Origin: a virus | DNA: 30,697 bases | Reading direction: 5' to 3' (one strand) | UHGV virus genome: UHGV-1292713 | Shown: piece after piece, positions 8,615 to 18,788 of the stretch | How the letters are laid out: each line of letters begins with the position of its first letter | How positions within the stretch are numbered: position 1 is the first letter of the stretch | Translations under genes and position numbers: made by a program | The notes under the pieces: generated by a model | The model's input: only the letters and a program-made list of their open reading frames with translations | Databases searched by the model: none | What the model was told of the DNA's origin: nothing

Positions 8615-8953
8615 CTATTTCCCTGAATTTACGACGAAACTGTTCGAGCGGACTGAAGCACTCATGCTCATAGCCTTCGCGGAGGTAGATAACCCGTTGT
8701 GTTTCCGGTTCCCAACGAATGACTCTGACGGGCACTCCGTAGTGATCTTTGAACCAGCGGTTAACTTGTCGCAAAGGACTGTCTCCTTCTGCCGGTTGAA
8801 ATCCCCCACAGCCCACTCTGCAAAGCTGTGGGTTACAATTTCCCTGTCACCTGGTACATTCACTGCATAGCAATATTCCACCTTCGCTTTTCCACCCGGT
8901 ACAGGAAGCGCAATCAGTTGCGAGCGACGGTAGTGTGTTGTTAAACTGTTCAT
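8615..8953 (-). CDS. Hypothetical protein, possibly frameshifted (C-terminus may continue in the overlapping frame ending 8595)
   Basis: ATG at 8953 overlaps the TGA of the upstream gene (ATGA coupling). The N-terminal half looks protein-like and the tail degenerate, whereas overlapping ORF 8595..8816 has a protein-like C-terminus; a ccccc run near 8806-8810 lies in the overlap. Confidence 0.35.
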
Positions 8954-9519
8954 GCGTTAGTTTCTCCACAACCAGAAGCAATCGACGCCACGACGCCCGG
9001 AGCTGCACACTCGCGGGCGTCATTACTTTCTGAAATGCAAAAGATTTTGTAGACCAGTGCTGCATGCTCCTGCAGCTTCGAAATTGAGAGATACAGCTCG
9101 TCGTTAATTGCTGTCTTCTCATGCGGTTCCACCACACCGTCTTCGATTGCTGAACGAATCTGTTTTGAATAACTGCCGATCTGTTCAATGACTTCCAGCA
9201 GACGCTGGTTAATATCGGCGTTGTCCACATCCTCGACGTCAGGAAGCGACACAAAGACGCCATTTGCAGACTGCGCCACAGCATCAGCAATGAAGTGAGT
9301 GCCACCAGCACGCTGTAAAACCATTGTCCATCCCAGCGGGAAAATCTGATCGCCATCTGCACGAAGGCGGTTGAATAAAGCGTTTTCTGTTACATCGAGC
9401 CAGTCAGCCGCTTCAGCGTAACCACCCGGCAACGCCGCGATAGTTTTTCTGACAGCTTTCACGTACCACTCAGGCTGTTTTTCTATTTTCCAGTGATGCT
9501 TACCCACGATTAGCCTCAT
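8950..9519 (-). CDS. CII-like / YdaT-like regulatory protein
   Basis: 189-aa ORF immediately downstream of the cro-like gene; N-terminal region is CII-like in character. Family assignment is tentative. Confidence 0.45.
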
Positions 9520-9550: not shown

Positions 9551-9751
9551 CTAATCTTTCGGATAGATATCCGGTCTTAAGTCAGATTTCGTAATTGCAC
9601 CTGACGTGCATTGCTCAAGTTTTTTAGCCAGCACAAAACTGGCTTTTTTATAGCCATTGAAAACCAGCCGTAAGTAGCCAGGAGTTGAGCCAACTTTTCC
9701 GGCCAACTCGCCCTGCTGTTCTTTGGTTAAAGAGTCCCAATACGCTTTCAT
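9551..9751 (-). CDS. Cro-like / YdaS-family DNA-binding protein
   Basis: Start assigned to the ATG at 9751 (MKAYWDSLTKEQQGELAGKVGSTPGYLRLV...) with GGAGGT Shine-Dalgarno 9 nt upstream; divergent from the cI-like repressor. The ORF-track frame 9551..10054 extends upstream through non-protein-like sequence. Confidence 0.65.
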   Translation of the reverse strand: MKAYWDSLTKEQQGELAGKVGSTPGYLRLVFNGYKKASFVLAKKLEQCTSGAITKSDLRPDIYPKD

Positions 9752-9755
9752 ACAA

Positions 9756-9826
9756 TATGTACCTCCGGTGTACATATTACATGATTGAAATGAACCTTCA
9801 AGATACTTGTACCTTAACGGTACAAG
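9756..9826. promoter_or_regulatory. Divergent cro/cI control region with two TGTAC-N7-GTACA operator palindromes
   Basis: atatgtac-ctccggt-gtacatat (about 9757-9779) and cttgtacc-ttaac-ggtacaag (9806-9826) between the cro-like start (9751) and the cI-like start (9842). Confidence 0.5.
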
Positions 9827-9841
9827 GGTTTTAATTTCGTT

Positions 9842-10516
9842 ATGAAAACAATCCATGACATCCGGCGGTCTAACGCCAGAAAACTGAGAGATGGTGTTGG
9901 AGGGAATTCTTCCTTTGCCACTATGATTGATCGCGAGCCAACCCAGACCAGCAGGTTTATGGGAGATGGTGCTACTAAAAATATCGGTGACAGCATGGCA
10001 CGACACATCGAAAAATGTTTCGACCTGCCTGTCGGATGGCTCGATCAAGAACACCAGACAACGAACATCACAAAAAAACCTGATGTTTCAATCACTAATA
10101 AACAAATCACATTAGTCCCTGTCATATCATGGGTACAGGCCGGAGCATGGAAAGAAGTTGGATATTCTGAGGTTGATTTGAGCACAGCAGAAACGTATCC
10201 CTGCCCTGTACCCTGTGGGGAAATGACTTATATCTTGCGGGTGATAGGTGATTCAATGATTGATGAGTACCGCCCGGGAGACATGATTTTTGTCGATCCT
10301 GAAGTACCTGCCTGCCACGGTGACGACGTTATTGCATTGATGCACGATACAGGTGAAACCACCTTCAAAAGGTTGATAGAAGATGGGACACAGCGTTATC
10401 TCAAAGCGTTAAACCCAAACTGGCCTGAGCCTTACATTAAGATCAACGGTAATTGCTCTATAATTGGAACTGTGATTTTCTCAGGAAAACCAAGAAGATA
10501 CAAAATCAAAGCCTAA
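9842..10516 (+). CDS. cI-like prophage repressor (N-terminal HTH, C-terminal S24 LexA-type peptidase domain)
   Basis: 224-aa ORF; C-terminal RVIGDSM...GDMIFVDPEVP...GDDVIAL...TFKRL is the S24 autopeptidase signature; divergent from the cro-like gene. Confidence 0.8.
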   Translation: MKTIHDIRRSNARKLRDGVGGNSSFATMIDREPTQTSRFMGDGATKNIGDSMARHIEKCFDLPVGWLDQEHQTTNITKKPDVSITNKQITLVPVISWVQAGAWKEVGYSEVDLSTAETYPCPVPCGEMTYILRVIGDSMIDEYRPGDMIFVDPEVPACHGDDVIALMHDTGETTFKRLIEDGTQRYLKALNPNWPEPYIKINGNCSIIGTVIFSGKPRRYKIKA

Positions 10517-10528
10517 TCAATGTTTATG

Positions 10529-10552
10529 AACCTGCTTCGGCAGGTTTTTTTA
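10529..10552 (+). terminator. Rho-independent terminator after the repressor gene
   Basis: aacctgc-ttcg-gcaggtt hairpin followed by a T7 run, 13 nt after the cI-like stop. Confidence 0.65.
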
Positions 10553-10555
10553 TAC

Positions 10556-10583
10556 TTGACAATGTACCTATGAGATACATAAT
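10556..10583 (+). promoter_or_regulatory. PL-like promoter (TTGACA-N16-CATAAT) with an operator-like half-palindrome in the spacer
   Basis: Consensus -35 TTGACA at 10556-10561 and -10 CATAAT at 10578-10583; the spacer contains TGTAC-N7-ATACA, resembling the cro/cI operators. Confidence 0.5.
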
Positions 10584-10661
10584 GTACCCAAGAGAAACAA
10601 CAAACAGGCAGGACGCCCACGAAGTAGCCGCCTGGGGCATATGAAGTCCAGGATGATTCGT

Positions 10662-10691
10662 TAGCAACAAAAAAGCGCCCTACAGGACGCT
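10662..10691 (-). terminator. Rho-independent terminator for the convergent zinc-ribbon gene
   Basis: Read on the minus strand: agcgtcc-tgta-gggcgct hairpin (one G-U pair) followed by ttttttgttg; 40 nt after the stop at 10731. Confidence 0.55.
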
Positions 10692-10730
10692 TAGCTCTTT
10701 AACAATCTGGATATCCACAACAGTAGTAAT

Positions 10731-11222
10731 CTACAGATTGCCGTTAAGTTTTCTGGACAACTCCTCAATGGATGGAGGCGATACGTAATCCGGATTTTTA
10801 TTCATCAGAAACTTATTTTCACAGTGGAGGCACCTGCTTTTATGAAAAAGCTCATCTTCGCTAACCGGGAATGGTTGAAGTATCGATACTATCTTTTGTC
10901 CAAAACATTTTGGGCAAAGATGCATGGTTATGCTGCCACCGTTCACGATTACCTCCTTCGAGTATACAAAAGTACCCGACTCAAGTTGGTTAAGGATATA
11001 GCCTTCCGTCTGAGCCTCAAAGTTTTCGAATTCTGCAATTTTAGCTTTGAGAGAAGCATTTATTTCTTGATAAGAGCCCACCAGTTCAACGAGAGACACG
11101 CATTCGCGCTGAATAGACGCAAGCTTTGAGTTCAGCTCACCAATAGCCGCATTTACTTCAGCTTGAGTTTTTGCCTCGTTCATTAGTTTTGCAATCTGGG
11201 CTGTTTCACGAATAGCCGTCAT
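10731..11222 (-). CDS. Hypothetical coiled-coil protein with C-terminal zinc ribbon, at the locus where lambda carries rexAB
   Basis: Start assigned to ATG at 11222 (MTAIRETAQ...), 164 aa; the ORF-track frame extends to 11510 through non-protein-like sequence. N-terminal ~80 aa predicted coiled coil; CPKC...CLHC pair; AT-rich; own terminator; convergent with cI. Confidence 0.6.
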   Translation of the reverse strand: MTAIRETAQIAKLMNEAKTQAEVNAAIGELNSKLASIQRECVSLVELVGSYQEINASLKAKIAEFENFEAQTEGYILNQLESGTFVYSKEVIVNGGSITMHLCPKCFGQKIVSILQPFPVSEDELFHKSRCLHCENKFLMNKNPDYVSPPSIEELSRKLNGNL

Positions 11223-11534
11223 TGCTGCCGTTAATTCAGCGATCACATTGAATACTCTTATTGTTGTTGGGGATATCCAGATTAACCGAATCCTTGTTGT
11301 TGGGGAATAACCAGGTCCACCTCGCCTGATGTGGCTAAAAGCAGGCACATAACAGCTAAGTATTTTCAACCAGAGAGAATCCTTAGCGTTGTGGTGAATG
11401 CGGCTCAGCGCACGCGGGTTAAGGTTGAGGCTGACAGTCGACCTTCTGTGGATACCCACCCGCCTGGTGTGCAACCTTCGCCAGGCACCGGGAGGCACCC
11501 GGCACCACAAGTTTATGCTGTGTGTAGTCCTGGC

Positions 11535-11580
11535 GGTACCAGTTTGTACCCTTGCTTCCGGCTGGTACCGTCCTTTTTTG
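11535..11580 (+). terminator. Terminator-like hairpin in the early-left leader
   Basis: 8-bp stem ggtaccag / ctggtacc (11535-11542, 11562-11569) with 19-nt loop, followed by gtcc + T6 (11574-11579). Confidence 0.4.
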
Positions 11581-11716
11581 CAAAACAGAGAAGAGCATCA
11601 CCGGACGACGGGCTCATAACCCAATCCATCCGGGCGGCTGCCACCGCAGGTGTTCTTCTCTGTTTTGTGGAGAAACCAACCGACCTTGCAGGGTCGATAT
11701 GATGAGGAGCAGCAAA

Positions 11717-12079
11717 ATGGCTAGCGAACGCAGTACTGATGTGCAGGCATTTATCGGGGAGCTGGACGGCGGCGTATTTGAAACCAAAATCGGCGCAGTT
11801 CTCAGTGAGGTCGCTTCCGGTGTGATGAACACGAAAACCAAAGGGAAGGTCTCACTCAATCTGGAAATCGAACCGTTTGATGAGAACCGTGTGAAAATCA
11901 AACACAAACTCTCATATGTTCGCCCAACTAACCGCGGGAAAATTTCCGAAGAAGACACCACCGAAACGCCGATGTATGTCAATCGCGGTGGTCGCCTGAC
12001 TATTCTGCAGGAAGACCAGGGACAATTACTGACTCTTGCCGGTGAACCTGACGGAAAACTCCGCGCAGCAGGTCGTTAA
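11717..12079 (+). CDS. Hypothetical early-left protein (YfdP-like by recollection)
   Basis: Start at ATG 11717 (MASERSTDVQ...) with GAGGAG Shine-Dalgarno upstream; 120 aa; first gene after the structured leader. Confidence 0.55.
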   Translation: MASERSTDVQAFIGELDGGVFETKIGAVLSEVASGVMNTKTKGKVSLNLEIEPFDENRVKIKHKLSYVRPTNRGKISEEDTTETPMYVNRGGRLTILQEDQGQLLTLAGEPDGKLRAAGR

Positions 12080-14291: not shown

Positions 14292-14662
14292 TGGAGCCAT
14301 ACAGCCTCACACTCGATGAGGCCTGTCATTTTCTCAAAATATCCAGACCGACTGCCATTAACTGGATACGCACAGGCCGCCTACAGGCAACACGTAAAGA
14401 TCCAACCAAGCAAAAATCTCCTTACCTCACAACACGGCAAGCTTGCATTGCGGCGCTTCAGTCTCCGCTGCATACTGTCCAGGTGAGCGCGGGTGATGGC
14501 ATAACAGAGGAAAGAAAATGTCACTCTTCCGCAGAAATGAAATATGGTATGCCTCGTATTCGCTCCCGGGCGGGAAACGAATTAAGGAATCTCTTGGCAC
14601 AAAGGACAAGCGGCAAGCTCAGGAGTTGCACGACAAGCGAAAAGCAGAACTCTGGCGAGTAG
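14291..14662 (+). CDS. Excisionase-like (AlpA/Xis family HTH); 3' extent uncertain
   Basis: Start at ATG 14291 ([31 protein letters not shown]...), overlapping the upstream stop. The frame stays open to 14662, overlapping the integrase start at 14518; the functional product may be shorter. Confidence 0.45.
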
Positions 14663-15681
14663 AAAAGCTAGGGGATTTACCTGATGTCACTTTTGAAGAG
14701 GCCTGCCTAAGATGGCTTGAGGAAAAAGCTGATAAAAAATCTCTCGATTCAGATAAAAGCCGGATTGAGTTCTGGCTTGAACATTTTGAGGGTATAAGGC
14801 TTAAAGATATCTCGGAGGCAAAGATTTACTCTGCTGTAAGCAGAATGCATAACAGAAAGACGAAAGAAATATGGAAACAGAAAGTTCAGGCCGCCATCAG
14901 GAAAGGTAAAGAACCGCCTGTTTATGAACCAAAGCCAGTATCAACTCAGACAAAGGCAAAGCATCTTGCCATGATAAAGGCCATTCTCCGTGCTGCAGAA
15001 CGCGACTGGAAGTGGCTGGAAAAAGCGCCTGTCATCAAGATACCAGCGGTCAGAAACAAGCGAGTCAGATGGCTGGAAAAGGAGGAAGCAAAACGCCTTA
15101 TTGATGAGTGCCCCGAACCACTGAAATCTGTCGTCAAGTTTGCGCTGGCAACTGGTCTGAGAAAGTCGAACATCATAAATCTGGAATGGCAACAAATCGA
15201 CATGCAGCGACGAGTTGCCTGGGTGAATCCAGAAGAGAGCAAATCAAACCGCGCCATTGGTGTGGCGCTGAACGATACCGCCTGTAAAGTGTTGCGTGAT
15301 CAAATAGGCAAGCATCACAAATGGGTGTTTGTACATACCAAGGCGGCTAAGCGAGCAGATGGAACATCAACGCCTGCGGTCAGGAAGATGCGCATCGACA
15401 GCAAGACATCATGGCTATCAGCTTGTCGTCGTGCAGGAATTGAAGATTTCCGTTTCCATGACCTCAGACACACCTGGGCAAGCTGGCTGATCCAGTCAGG
15501 CGTCCCATTATCTGTGCTTCAGGAAATGGGCGGATGGGAGTCCATAGAAATGGTTCGTAGGTATGCTCACCTTGCGCCTAATCATTTGACAGAGCATGCA
15601 AGGAAAATAGACGACATTTTTGGTGATAATGTCCCAAATATGTCCCACTGTGGAATTATGGAGGATATAAAGAAGGCGTAA
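14518..15681 (+). CDS. int: Tyrosine site-specific integrase (DLP12 IntD-like, tRNA-Arg-targeting)
   Basis: 387-aa ORF with the C-terminal catalytic signature ([10 protein letters not shown]...VRRYAHL); immediately followed by a tRNA-Arg 3' fragment. Confidence 0.9.
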
Positions 15682-15696
15682 CTGATTGAATTGTAA

Positions 15697-15741
15697 TGGC
15701 GCGCCCTGCAGGATTCGAACCTGCGGCCCACGACTTAGAAG
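15697..15741 (-). other. Attachment-site core: 3' 45 nt of tRNA-Arg(UCU) (argU-like), partial tRNA
   Basis: Reverse complement reads cttctaagtcgtgggccgcaggttcgaatcctgcagggcgcgcca, i.e. anticodon loop with TCT, T-arm GCAGG-TTCGAAT-CCTGC, acceptor 3' strand and CCA. The 5' half of the tRNA is absent; the sequence diverges after the anticodon loop. Confidence 0.75.
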
Positions 15742-16163
15742 TTCCTAGAACGACATTTTAAGTCAACAAATTACCGCGCCATCTCTGCGCTCACACGTCC
15801 CACTACCTCAAAACATGTAAAGCCTTGCAAGCCATTGTGAGGCCTTATGTGTCTCAGTTTTGTCCCTCTTTTTTGTACTAAAAAACATAGCAATTGAGGA
15901 TAAACCTCATGCTATTTTCGCTTATATGCCTTTAAAGGCATGGCGCTTAAATAGATAAAAACACCACAAAAGCATAAAAAACCACACAGTAAAACCGCAA
16001 CATAAAACAATAACAGATAATTAAACCAAAAACAGATAGCGCATTGTGATAATCATTCAATACTAAACAAAATATAAACAGTGGAGCAATATGTGATTGA
16101 CTCATTAAGTTAGATATAAAAAATACATATTCAATCATTAAAACGATTGAATGGAGAACTTTT

Positions 16164-17117
16164 ATGCGGGCGAAACTTCTGGGAATAGTTCTGACAACCC
16201 CTATTGCGATCAGCTCTTTTGCTTCTACCGAGACTATATCGTTTACTCCTGACAACATCAATGCGGACATTAGTCTTGGAACTCTGAGCGGAAAAACAAA
16301 AGAGCGCGTTTATCTAGCTGAAGAAGGAGGCCGAAAAGTCAGTCAACTCGACTGGAAATTCAATAACGCTGCAATTATTAAAGGTGCAATTAATTGGGAT
16401 TTGATGCCCCAGATATCTATTGGGGCTGCGGGCTGGACTACTCTCGGCAGCCGAGGTGGCAATATGGTCGATCAGGACTGGATGGATTCCAGTAACCCCG
16501 GAACCTGGACAGATGAAAGTAGGCACCCTGATACACAACTCAATTATGCCAACGAATTTGATCTGAATATCAAAGGCTGGCTCCTCAACGAACCCAATTA
16601 CCGCCTGGGACTCATGGCCGGATATCAGGAAAGCCGTTATAGCTTTACAGCCAGAGGTGGTTCCTATATCTACAGTTCTGAGGAGGGATTCAGAGATGAT
16701 ATCGGCTCCTTCCCGAATGGAGAAAGAGCAATCGGCTACAAACAACGTTTTAAAATGCCCTACATTGGCTTGACTGGAAGTTATCGTTATGAAGATTTTG
16801 AGCTAGGTGGCACATTTAAATACAGCGGCTGGGTGGAAGCATCTGATAACGATGAGCACTATGACCCAGGAAAAAGAATCACTTATCGCAGTAAAGTCAA
16901 AGACCAAAATTACTATTCTGTTGCAGTCAATGCAGGTTATTACGTAACACCTAACGCAAAGGTTTATGTTGAAGGCGCATGGAATCGGGTTACGAATAAA
17001 AAAGGTAATACTTCACTTTATGATCACAATGATAACACTTCAGACTACAGCAAAAATGGTGCAGGCATAGAAAACTATAACTTCATCACTACTGCTGGTC
17101 TTAAGTACACCTTTTAA
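16164..17117 (+). CDS. ompT: Outer membrane protease OmpT (omptin family)
   Basis: 317-aa ORF with signal peptide; sequence matches my recollection of E. coli OmpT essentially throughout. Confidence 0.9.
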   Translation: MRAKLLGIVLTTPIAISSFASTETISFTPDNINADISLGTLSGKTKERVYLAEEGGRKVSQLDWKFNNAAIIKGAINWDLMPQISIGAAGWTTLGSRGGNMVDQDWMDSSNPGTWTDESRHPDTQLNYANEFDLNIKGWLLNEPNYRLGLMAGYQESRYSFTARGGSYIYSSEEGFRDDIGSFPNGERAIGYKQRFKMPYIGLTGSYRYEDFELGGTFKYSGWVEASDNDEHYDPGKRITYRSKVKDQNYYSVAVNAGYYVTPNAKVYVEGAWNRVTNKKGNTSLYDHNDNTSDYSKNGAGIENYNFITTAGLKYTF

Positions 17118-17303
17118 CGAAGTTAACCAGATTTTCTCCCCGGTGGTATTGTATAACCCCGGGGAATTTGTTTACAGTTACAAGTAGGCAATATCCACTA
17201 ATTTTGTAAGCATTTAACCTATGTCATAACGTGTAATCTCTTACCGCAACACAAGACCTCAATATATTCAAATCTTATCTTTATTCCGATATTCAGAGAC
17301 ACA

Positions 17304-18788
17304 ATGCGAAAAATAATTACTCATTTCAAAGTTGTTTTAACGTTACTTCTACCAGTAACCGTATCTGCCCAGCAGATACAGTGGCAATCCTGTATGGCCA
17401 GTCAATTCAACCACTGGTTTGGTGAGGAAAAACCGTCTCCTGACTTACTATGTGGTTATTTGTCTGTTCCATTAAAATATACAGACACAGGCGGAGATGC
17501 TTCTTATGAAAAAAAATCACAAGTCAAACTAGCGTTGACAAAATTGCCGGCAAAAAGCAAGCATAAAGGAAGTATCCTGATAATAAGTGGTGGTCCCGGG
17601 TTACCAGGCATAAATCCTTATATTAACTTTGACTGGCCAGTCACAAATCTTCGTGAGTCATGGGATATTATTGGATTTGATCCTCGAGGCGTCGGACAGT
17701 CCACTCCGACAATAAACTGCCGGCAATCAGATACAGAGACTCAGGAAAACATAACCGAAAAGCAACAAGTATTAAATAAAATTAATGCCTGTATCCATAA
17801 TACCGGAGCCGAAGTCATTCGCCATATCGGCTCTAACGAGGCTGTATACGATATTGATCGTATTAGGCAAGCCTTGGGGGATAAACAACTGACAGCCGTG
17901 GCGTATTCGTATGGAACTCAAATTGCAGCCTTATATGCAGAACGTTTTCCCTACAACGTAAGATCTATCGTTCTTGATGGAGTCGTCGATATCGATGACC
18001 TGGAGGACAACTTCACATGGCAACTCAAACAGGCACAGAGTTATCAGGAAACGTTTGATCGCTTTGCATCCTGGTGTGCGCGTACAAAAAGTTGCCCGCT
18101 TTCTTCAGACAGAGATAAGGCAATAACTCAGTTCCATGAGCTATTATCAAAATTACATCACAAACCTTTATTAGACAGTAAGGGAGAAAATATATCTTCA
18201 GATGAACTCATATCATTAACAACAGACCTTCTGCTATGGCGTTCATCATGGCCAACCCTTGCAACTGCCATACGCCAGTTCTCTCAGGGGATTGTCAGTA
18301 ATGAAATTGAAACTGCGCTCAGTGCTCCGATAGCCTCAGAAGAGTCAAGCGATGCTTCGGGGGTAATCCTCTGTGTAGATCAGGGGGATGAGCAATTAAC
18401 ACCAGAAGAGCGAAAATCCCGAAAAGACGCTCTTGCGAATGCCTTCCCGGCTATTAACTTTGACAATGGACGTTCCGATTCACCTGATTTTTGTGAATTA
18501 TGGCCAATACATAGCGACCTGAACAAAACTCGCCTGAAAAATACTGTTCTGCCCTCTGGTTTACTGTTTGTAGCACACAAATACGACCCAACAACGCCCT
18601 GGATTAATGCCCGTAAGATGGCAGAGAAATTTTCCAGCCCGTTACTAACAATAAATGGTGATGGGCATACATTAGCTCTCACCGGAGTTAATTTATGTGT
18701 AGATAAAGCAGTTGTACATCACCTGATCACTCCACAAAAAATAGAAAATATATACTGCCCAGGAAATTCTGAAGCAGAAATACAATAA
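17304..18788 (+). CDS. Secreted alpha/beta-fold hydrolase (S33/TAP-like peptidase family)
   Basis: 494-aa ORF with N-terminal signal peptide (…LLLPVTVSAQQ); nucleophile elbow Y-S-Y-G-T; family call is approximate. Confidence 0.6.
   Translation: MRKIITHFKVVLTLLLPVTVSAQQIQWQSCMASQFNHWFGEEKPSPDLLCGYLSVPLKYTDTGGDASYEKKSQVKLALTKLPAKSKHKGSILIISGGPGLPGINPYINFDWPVTNLRESWDIIGFDPRGVGQSTPTINCRQSDTETQENITEKQQVLNKINACIHNTGAEVIRHIGSNEAVYDIDRIRQALGDKQLTAVAYSYGTQIAALYAERFPYNVRSIVLDGVVDIDDLEDNFTWQLKQAQSYQETFDRFASWCARTKSCPLSSDRDKAITQFHELLSKLHHKPLLDSKGENISSDELISLTTDLLLWRSSWPTLATAIRQFSQGIVSNEIETALSAPIASEESSDASGVILCVDQGDEQLTPEERKSRKDALANAFPAINFDNGRSDSPDFCELWPIHSDLNKTRLKNTVLPSGLLFVAHKYDPTTPWINARKMAEKFSSPLLTINGDGHTLALTGVNLCVDKAVVHHLITPQKIENIYCPGNSEAEIQ

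Follow-up and report, generated by a model that had tools for sequence, protein, structure and literature searches.

A predicted Rip1-family protein encoded in the sieB slot of an SfV-type lambdoid phage

Rip1 (ring interacting pore 1) has been described as a prophage-encoded single protein that acts as sensor and effector at once and is not toxic alone, as summarised in section 5 of a review (PMC13434031, where the work is cited as Patel et al. 2026, Nature 651:1060) and in a meeting report (PMC12908700). According to these two summaries, mutations that allow phages to escape fall in the portal for phages of Pseudomonas and in the small terminase for those of E. coli, cryo-electron microscopy reveals an 11-mer small terminase ring surrounded by 12 Rip1 subunits, and the complex is a pore, as seen in dye release from liposomes, perforation of cells and premature lysis of infected cells (PMC13434031, PMC12908700). 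The review section identifies the N-terminal part as an amphipathic, pore-forming helix and the C-terminal half as the part that contacts the ring (PMC13434031). Here we describe a gene in a 30,697-nucleotide (nt) stretch of the virus genome UHGV-1292713, the whole of which is called the window below. As judged from homology and predicted structure, its product is a divergent member of this family, which itself is not new, and it is probably a prophage-expressed abortive-infection protein of the Rip1 type that would form pores on the ring of a superinfecting phage.

Two other exclusion systems bear on the position of the gene. Lambda rexAB lies between cI and the early-left operator and promoter (OL/PL) and is read with cI; lambda sieB (34482-35036, plus strand) converges on N, lying antisense to the PL operon. 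SieB is expressed from the prophages of lambda and P22. In P22, a related phage whose gene bears the same name, expression of sieB from the prophage (PMC10883804) and its regulation by the antisense RNA sas (PMC12197685) are both on record. A preliminary description of the window, made from the letters alone, had placed the gene at the rexAB-equivalent locus. The order cI, terminator, OL/PL, gene rules this out: PL/OL lies between cI and the gene, which is also single and on the opposite strand. Judged by gene order and upstream homology, the gene occupies the slot of lambda sieB. The same slot holds Rip1 in HK446, antisense in the PL operon, convergent with N and overlapping the end of N, and hkaP in HK620, where hkaQ lies between hkaP and N; hkaP is annotated as 'putative superinfection exclusion protein' on positional grounds.

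Identity and fold of the protein

A phmmer search of the sequences in the PDB gave one significant match, chain 9oox_L, named 'ring interacting pore 1 (Rip1)' (E 2.7e-7; residues 14-150 of the query against 28-159 of the chain). The entry is titled 'Escherichia phage HK446 Rip1 in complex with the Enterobacteria phage T6 small terminase', and the chain is HK446_037, to which the window protein is 27% identical by BLASTP (E 4e-11). With a profile of 34 homologues the match to 9oox_L rose to E 1.5e-19 and covered positions 5-151 against 15-160 of the 164 in the chain, both CxxC pairs being aligned. In PHROGs the protein falls into phrog_1244 (E 2.4e-58), a group of 'unknown function', and the window protein, HK446 Rip1, HK620 HkaP and JBD30_030 of a Mu-like Pseudomonas phage all match this group end to end (E 1e-51 to 1e-61). 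The family that the preliminary description could not recognise is thus PHROG 1244/Rip1, reached by phmmer, by profile and, as described below, by Foldseek.

The AlphaFold2 model (mean pLDDT, the predicted local distance difference test, 90.6) consists of helices at residues 3-24 and 28-79 and a beta-rich Cys4 domain at 84-150, in agreement with the coiled coil and CPKC...CLHC zinc ribbon read earlier from the sequence. When the model was compared with the PDB by Foldseek, 9oox_L and 9oox_M were the sole matches below E 0.1 (probability 1.00, 28% identity, template modelling score normalised to the target 0.52-0.70); the next match had an E of 0.1. The cysteines C111, C114, C139 and C142 are invariant in the 34 homologues, their counterparts in HK446 Rip1 being the motifs CAQC and CHRC, and they are among 13 invariant columns in homologues down to 41% identity; the two CxxC pairs are predicted to form a zinc-ribbon-like Cys4 domain. 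The most amphipathic 18-residue stretch spans residues 7-24 in both proteins, with a hydrophobic moment of 0.44 here and 0.42 in HK446 Rip1. Both the profile and the structure-based searches that the preliminary description had proposed returned Rip1, the profile over the full length, and its guess at an exclusion or defence function now has a footing in clear homology to an experimentally characterised prophage anti-phage protein.

Compared with HK446 Rip1, the window protein is of similar length (171 against 164 amino acids), shares PHROG 1244 and has the same succession of amphipathic N-terminal helix, long helix and beta-rich domain with two CxxC pairs. Both genes are single genes of lambdoid temperate phages, downstream of PL on the opposite strand, and both follow an invariant 31-nt element and paired CCCC[A/T]ACA repeats. 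They differ in clade, with 27-28% identity between the proteins, the close relatives of the window clade coming from Escherichia, Salmonella, Citrobacter, Klebsiella and other Enterobacterales. They differ also in that the window has no N gene between PL and the gene, and in that the window cassette comes with a terminator of its own and with a 26-nt inverted repeat bracketing the open reading frame (ORF), which HK446 lacks. Mu-like Pseudomonas phages (JBD30_030, DMS3, MP42, D3112 orf25) likewise carry the family as a single opposite-strand gene, unlike the window gene in a genomic position outside the immunity region, in host clade and in GC content. JBD30_030 itself, 29% identical over 89% of the protein by tblastn (PHROG 1244, E 2.7e-61), is on the strand opposite to its two flanking genes, both annotated only as hypothetical; in the review section, Pseudomonas Rip1 is placed between the genes for the small and large terminase (PMC13434031).

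The family is large: a profile search collected 2728 clusters (50% identity) at E<=1e-3 and 986 at E<=1e-10. Of 5426 complete E. coli genomes, 686 (about 13%), O157:H7 included, contain at least 80% of the window cassette. Homologues are convergent with the repressor gene in prophages of Kosakonia, Enterobacter and Scandinavium that have other immunity types, one of them with an unrelated 138-residue helix-turn-helix repressor, and in O157:H7 the gene belongs to a Rac-like prophage, with racR on one side and the early-left genes on the other. No co-oriented partner gene accompanies the window gene, which stands alone with its own terminator, as it does in four other prophage types.

The ORF of 164 codons proposed earlier (10731..11222, minus strand) is real, its start and length are not: the ATG form amounts to 163 amino acids plus the stop codon, and the product most likely starts at a GTG codon at 11246, giving 171 residues. 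This start is favoured because the N-terminus MIAELxAAM is common to 33 homologues, the eight residues added in the window reading MIAELTAA, because the coding sequence (CDS) in the RefSeq record of O157:H7 has 516 nt, and because the GTG is preceded at 8 nt by a Shine-Dalgarno-like AAGAG, with a GAG that does not vary in 13 loci; the PHROG profile also reaches 8 positions past the ATG. The GenBank record of PhiR49_1 (L001 3232-3960, corresponding to 10731-11510 of the window, minus strand) has an over-long CDS of 243 amino acids that starts inside the non-coding upstream region. A 101-codon ORF on the plus strand (10824-11129), antisense to the Rip1-family gene and sense to PL, has a similar counterpart at the locus L008. 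Being in exact codon-complement register with the CDS, it stays open wherever the codons TTA, CTA and TCA are absent, and it was set aside as, most likely, a by-product of codon usage.

The cassette and the sieB slot

By its sequence matches the window is an SfV/e14-type lambdoid temperate phage. PhiR49_1 and PhiR29, which are Escherichia phages, share 99.4% identity with the region 10500-11720, whose flanks match SfV, SfIV, SfII and ST64B. The ORF, terminators, promoter and repeats were recovered near where the preliminary description had put them, above chance wherever chance was testable. The features of the region are as follows.

8950-9519, minus strand: ORF noted beside the cro-like gene in the immunity region
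9551-9751, minus strand: cro-like gene, with the replication genes on the same strand
9842-10516, plus strand: cI-like repressor (YmfK/LexA-family, Peptidase_S24), convergent with the Rip1-family gene
10528-10547, plus strand: terminator of the cI-like repressor, which ends at 10516
10556-10583, plus strand: PL-like early-left promoter, TTGACA-16-CATAAT (11/12 match), aimed into the 3' end of the Rip1-family gene
10563-10579 and 10583-10599, plus strand: OL operator copies TGTAC-N7-RWACA, overlapping the PL-like promoter
10665..11317, minus strand: exchangeable cassette (moron), consisting of terminator, inverted repeat, gene, inverted repeat and proximal upstream region
10673..10692, minus strand: intrinsic terminator serving the Rip1-family gene, AAGCGUCC-UGUA-GGGCGCUU and then a U-run
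10704..10729, no strand: 3' arm of the inverted repeat, directly after the stop codon, with GGATATCCAGATTGTTAAAGAGC kept in 11/13 related loci
10731..11246, minus strand: Rip1-family gene, 171 amino acids, GTG start at 11246, TAG stop at 10733-10731
11247..11347, minus strand: conserved sieB-type upstream region (promoter and/or 5' untranslated region, UTR), about 105 nt
11255..11259, minus strand: Shine-Dalgarno-like AAGAG, 8 nt before the GTG
11258..11283, no strand: 5' arm of the inverted repeat, containing AATCTGGATATCC
11261..11274, minus strand: direct repeat copy 1, ATCCCCAACAACAA, within the 11257-11278 noted earlier
11294..11307, minus strand: direct repeat copy 2, TTCCCCAACAACAA, within the 11292-11312 noted earlier and 33 nt upstream of the other copy
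11317..11347, minus strand: invariant element of 31 nt, TGCCTG(T)CTTTTnnCCACnTCAGGCnnGGTGG, placed distally in the upstream region
from 11717, plus strand: yfdP, yfdQ, yfdR, then another early-left gene and the integrase

Several elements named in the preliminary description are present as described, among them the terminator that follows the cI-like repressor and the PL-like promoter that points into the 3' end of the gene. The terminator of the gene itself (8 pairs, a 4-nt loop and a T-run) is real and kept in related loci, and its place is at 10692..10673 on the minus strand instead of 10662-10691. The AT-richness ascribed to the gene holds against the right flank (GC 0.551, against 0.428 in the CDS) but not against cI (0.446) or the PL leader (0.439).

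The operator motif TGTAC-N7-RWACA has 6 matches in the window where 0.26 are expected, and outside the PL-like promoter its sole occurrences in the 30.7 kb are those at 9758 and 9808, in the interval from cI to cro, where the operators are 17-bp TGTAC-N7-GTACA palindromes. Since the motif is otherwise confined to the cI/cro intergenic region, the promoter at 10556-10583 is taken to be the repressor-controlled PL/OL. The PL transcript would have to cross the whole cassette in antisense before it reached yfdP at 11717, and it is plausible, as the preliminary description proposed, that PL transcription on induction could lower expression of the cassette through transcriptional interference or duplex RNA. 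Such silencing would fit both the recurrence of PHROG 1244 members antisense to the surrounding operon in HK446, HK620 and JBD30 and the precedent for antisense control in P22, where SieB/Esc is paired with the sas RNA.

The two direct repeats of about 20 bp reported upstream of the gene were confirmed, with a core T/A-TCCCCAACAACAA at 11261-11274 and 11294-11307 (minus strand) that is kept in 12 related loci; an inverted copy also exists, as part of the 26-nt inverted repeat treated below. The upstream region as a whole is 84-91% identical between loci whose CDS identity is 64-72%, and it is homologous to the upstream regions of lambda sieB, HK446 Rip1, HK620 hkaP, the SfV 81-codon ORF and the ECs1072-family gene of E. 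coli D2. RNAalifold on the upstream region of 13 loci gave -7.9 kcal/mol and no compensatory pair; because covariation is lacking, its conservation is treated as conservation of primary sequence. In lambda, HK446 and HK620 an analogous repeat pair (ACCCCTACAG) follows the 31-nt element at similar spacing, the SfV ORF has the 31-nt element without repeats, and the D2 gene has the element together with CCCCAACAAC repeats of the window type, the corresponding motif in the upstream region of the window being CCCCAACAACAA. On these sequence comparisons the repeats are part of a widely shared 'sieB-slot' expression region. The 31-nt element itself recurs at the loci L022 (lambda 34393-34430), L005, L002, L004, L020 and L023-L142, and in the literature searched we found no description of a function for it, be it as a promoter part, a 5' stem-loop or a protein site.

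The 24-nt core of this element is present in at least 120 IMG/VR viral contigs, where the first ORF behind it belongs to at least 26 unrelated cargo families (SieB 30, an 81-residue family 17, a 76-residue double-CxxC family 10, Rip1-like 8, ECs1072-like 5, plus others). When 10 of the other cargo families were scanned against Pfam and PADLOC, nothing informative emerged save a weak PDC-M14A match of the 76-residue double-CxxC protein.

Exchange of cargo is visible among close relatives of the window. Homology to SfV is lost at 10662 and returns at 11317, with unrelated ORFs in between, and homology to E. coli D2 is lost at 10710 and returns at 11263, an 'ECs1072 family' gene taking the place of the Rip1-family gene. 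With its own terminator, a conserved upstream region and replacement in both SfV and D2, the unit is, on sequence grounds, a moron. The D2 slot (L020 2587-3199) encodes a 144-residue 'ECs1072 family phage-associated protein', the 3' end of its gene being partly overlapped by a plus-strand ORF of 68 codons; the SfV slot (L004 2690-3148) encodes an 81-residue protein (MTFDEKELDNAINK...) found in 17 viral contigs. Neither the 144-residue nor the 81-residue protein has a Pfam or PADLOC match, and both genes are candidates for exclusion functions.

The exchange junctions lie at or beside the arms of the 26-nt inverted repeat (10704-10729 and 11258-11283), which brackets the ORF and is 85% complementary. 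Within the window the exact 13-mer AATCTGGATATCC is confined to these two places, where its copies are inverted relative to each other. The outer part of the 3' arm and the terminator after it are kept in 11 of 13 loci, and a comparable inverted repeat surrounds the different cargo, the ECs1072-family gene, of E. coli D2 (L020). Comparison of the arms by eye in about 13 loci revealed changes in single arms that break pairing and no compensatory ones, and the orientation of the gene relative to upstream region and terminator was identical in 14 of 14 loci, with no inverted cargo. The arms also bear no resemblance to sites of the hix/gix type. A selected RNA helix or invertase sites are thus not supported, there being no compensatory changes and no inversion of cargo; the repeat may act in pairing of 5' and 3' RNA ends, in a 3' UTR-derived RNA (GGAUAUCCAGAUU... 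with the terminator), as protein-binding sites or as recombination sites.

It is conceivable, if on balance doubtful, that the 31-nt element and the paired CCCC[A/T]ACA repeats, here joined by the 26-nt inverted repeat, make up a dedicated 'socket' of lambdoid phages through which single-gene abortive-infection modules are expressed, regulated and swapped antisense to PL. Regulation might then proceed through pairing of the 5' and 3' ends, a 3' UTR-derived RNA or antisense transcription from PL. If this were true, the 20-odd uncharacterised small cargo families behind the element would be undiscovered defence genes, and the Rip1 clade of the window would sense a ring protein other than that sensed by HK446 Rip1.

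Proposed action and competing explanations

By analogy with HK446 Rip1, the window protein would be made in the lysogen and would be harmless by itself. Once a superinfecting phage was expressing its late genes, the ring formed by its small terminase or portal oligomer would serve as a template around which the C-terminal Cys4/zinc-ribbon domains of about 12 subunits would gather; the N-terminal amphipathic helices would then make a pore in the inner membrane, and the cell would be permeabilised or lysed before progeny mature. When the resident prophage is induced, antisense transcription from PL could reduce expression of the cassette. We infer expression in the lysogen from the autonomy of the cassette and from the homology that links its upstream region to the one of sieB, which is expressed from the prophage.

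Several points weigh against this proposal. The account of the Rip1 mechanism comes from secondary sources, namely section 5 of the review PMC13434031, the meeting report PMC12908700 and the title of 9oox. Identity to HK446 Rip1, the only structurally characterised member, is 27-28%, so that the window protein could have another trigger and even another activity. Its N-terminal helices, though amphipathic, are not strongly hydrophobic. A scan of the gene's strand with the sigma-70 consensus found no promoter, and candidates picked by hand, such as TTCCCC-17-TAATCT, are weak. Finally, scans of the 171-residue protein against Pfam, NCBIfam and PADLOC (2023) returned nothing beyond sub-threshold coiled-coil and zinc-ribbon noise, which is consistent with a family described in 2026 and adds no independent support.

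The alternative that survives best, although improbable, is that a genuine homologue of Rip1 has come to serve the resident phage in another way, either modulating packaging or the timing of lysis through the phage's own small terminase or portal ring, or excluding other phages without forming a pore. The low identity (27%) to HK446 Rip1 and a C-terminal tail (residues 150-171) specific to the clade of the window protein leave room for such a change, as does the size and diversity of the family, with its 2728 clusters; the setting of the Pseudomonas members, with JBD30_030 on the opposite strand between hypothetical genes and Rip1 between terminase genes in the review section (PMC13434031), points the same way. 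A self-terminated opposite-strand cassette in the sieB slot is, however, typical of accessory genes expressed in the lysogen and not of lytic-cycle genes, and the full-length architecture is kept together with the amphipathic N-terminal helix. Sibling phages of the SfV type, moreover, have unrelated cargo in the slot, which argues that the gene is dispensable for the phage.

Abortive infection of the SieB or Rex kind, in which the membrane is depolarised on an early or mid-infection trigger with no sensing of a ring, is a reading from position and seems very unlikely. The slot antisense to the PL operon and the upstream region are indeed shared with lambda sieB, and SieB of lambda and SieB/Esc of P22 have a prophage-expressed abortive-infection or exclusion role; the positional annotation of hkaP as a superinfection exclusion protein leans in this direction. 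Lambda RexAB is a prophage abortive-infection function of the immunity region that ends in lost membrane integrity. SieB is, however, an unrelated membrane protein with hydrophobic N-terminal segments, the window protein has no Pfam match at E<=1 that would connect it to SieB and no Rex homology in the Pfam scan, and in BLAST clustering of the slot cargo SieB (30 loci) and the Rip1-like proteins (8 loci) fall into separate components. RexAB, for its part, comprises two genes in the cI-PL interval, co-transcribed with cI from the promoters PRM/PRE and coding for unrelated proteins, whereas the window gene lies beyond PL on the opposite strand and is not transcribed with cI. Homology to Rip1 accounts for the whole protein.

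An inert or decaying passenger ORF, with function confined to flanks that would act as recombination sites or, at the level of DNA or RNA, in regulation within the PL leader, is scarcely credible, since the better conservation of the upstream region (84-91%) than of the CDS (64-72%) and the recurrence of the same flanks around unrelated cargo are set against an ORF intact at the full length of the family, a cassette present in 686 of the 5426 complete E. coli genomes, 13 invariant columns including the four cysteines in homologues down to 41% identity, and a high-confidence fold that matches Rip1.

A Rip1-type action would give a probable pore-forming role to a gene annotated everywhere as 'hypothetical protein', which bears on the prediction of phage susceptibility and on the choice of phages for therapy. 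The sieB-type upstream region, common to sieB, Rip1 and many small genes of other kinds, offers a tractable case of how defence genes stay on in lysogens and how they are handled at induction, and it could be a sequence handle for finding more prophage defence genes. The remaining interest lies in that shared upstream region, in the inverted repeat and in the many cargo genes behind the same element.

The early-left leader and neighbouring genes

The leader downstream of PL contains a hairpin at 10631-10652 (conserved flanks 10606-10660), about 45 nt downstream of the PL -10 element, with a CCTGG/CCAGG stem, a conserved 12-nt loop GGCAUAUGAAGU and a conserved AGGCAGGACGCCCACGAAGTAGCCGCC preceding it. 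Across 10 loci, including other immunity types, three of the five stem pairs show compensatory changes and 88% of cells are paired; 10 cells are double-changed, against 3.5+-1.4 after shuffling (0/500), and slid controls gave 20-50%. The hairpin has no match in Rfam, and its covariation leaves the strand undecided. No N gene lies between PL and yfdP, and the hairpin could be a nut- or put-like antitermination signal, or a processing signal, of N-less phages of the e14/SfV/ST64B type.

Rfam searched over the cassette and the PL leader returned no family, the only hit being a sub-threshold one to STnc100 (RF02076) outside the cassette. This match, at 11366-11581 on the plus strand, is full-length and reaches 39 bits where the gathering score is 47 (E 1.3e-6). 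Its place is inside a conserved, GC-rich (0.55) non-coding leader that stretches from the cassette to yfdP, and the match ends in a long hairpin (GGTACCAG...CTGGTACC) and a T-run that resemble a plus-strand terminator, with a fold z-score of only -1.7. Transcripts from PL would need to pass this terminator-like hairpin. The small 'hypothetical proteins' that the PhiR49_1 record also annotates, in the PL leader and where the STnc100-like match lies, probably do not correspond to genes.

In type the immunity region corresponds to that of e14, with the RefSeq names YmfK/YmfT/YmfL. The cro-like gene (9551-9751, minus strand) has a sub-threshold Pfam match to YdaS/HTH (helix-turn-helix) at E 1.5e-5, with 25.1 bits where the cut-off is 30. 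Beyond the early-left genes, two plus-strand ORFs, of 317 and 494 amino acids, come after the integrase ORF (14518-15681; window 14518-18788 in all). Their sizes and positions are suggestive of gtrB and a type-specific glucosyltransferase gene as in SfV genomes, which would imply the gene order of a phage genome and not that of a prophage.

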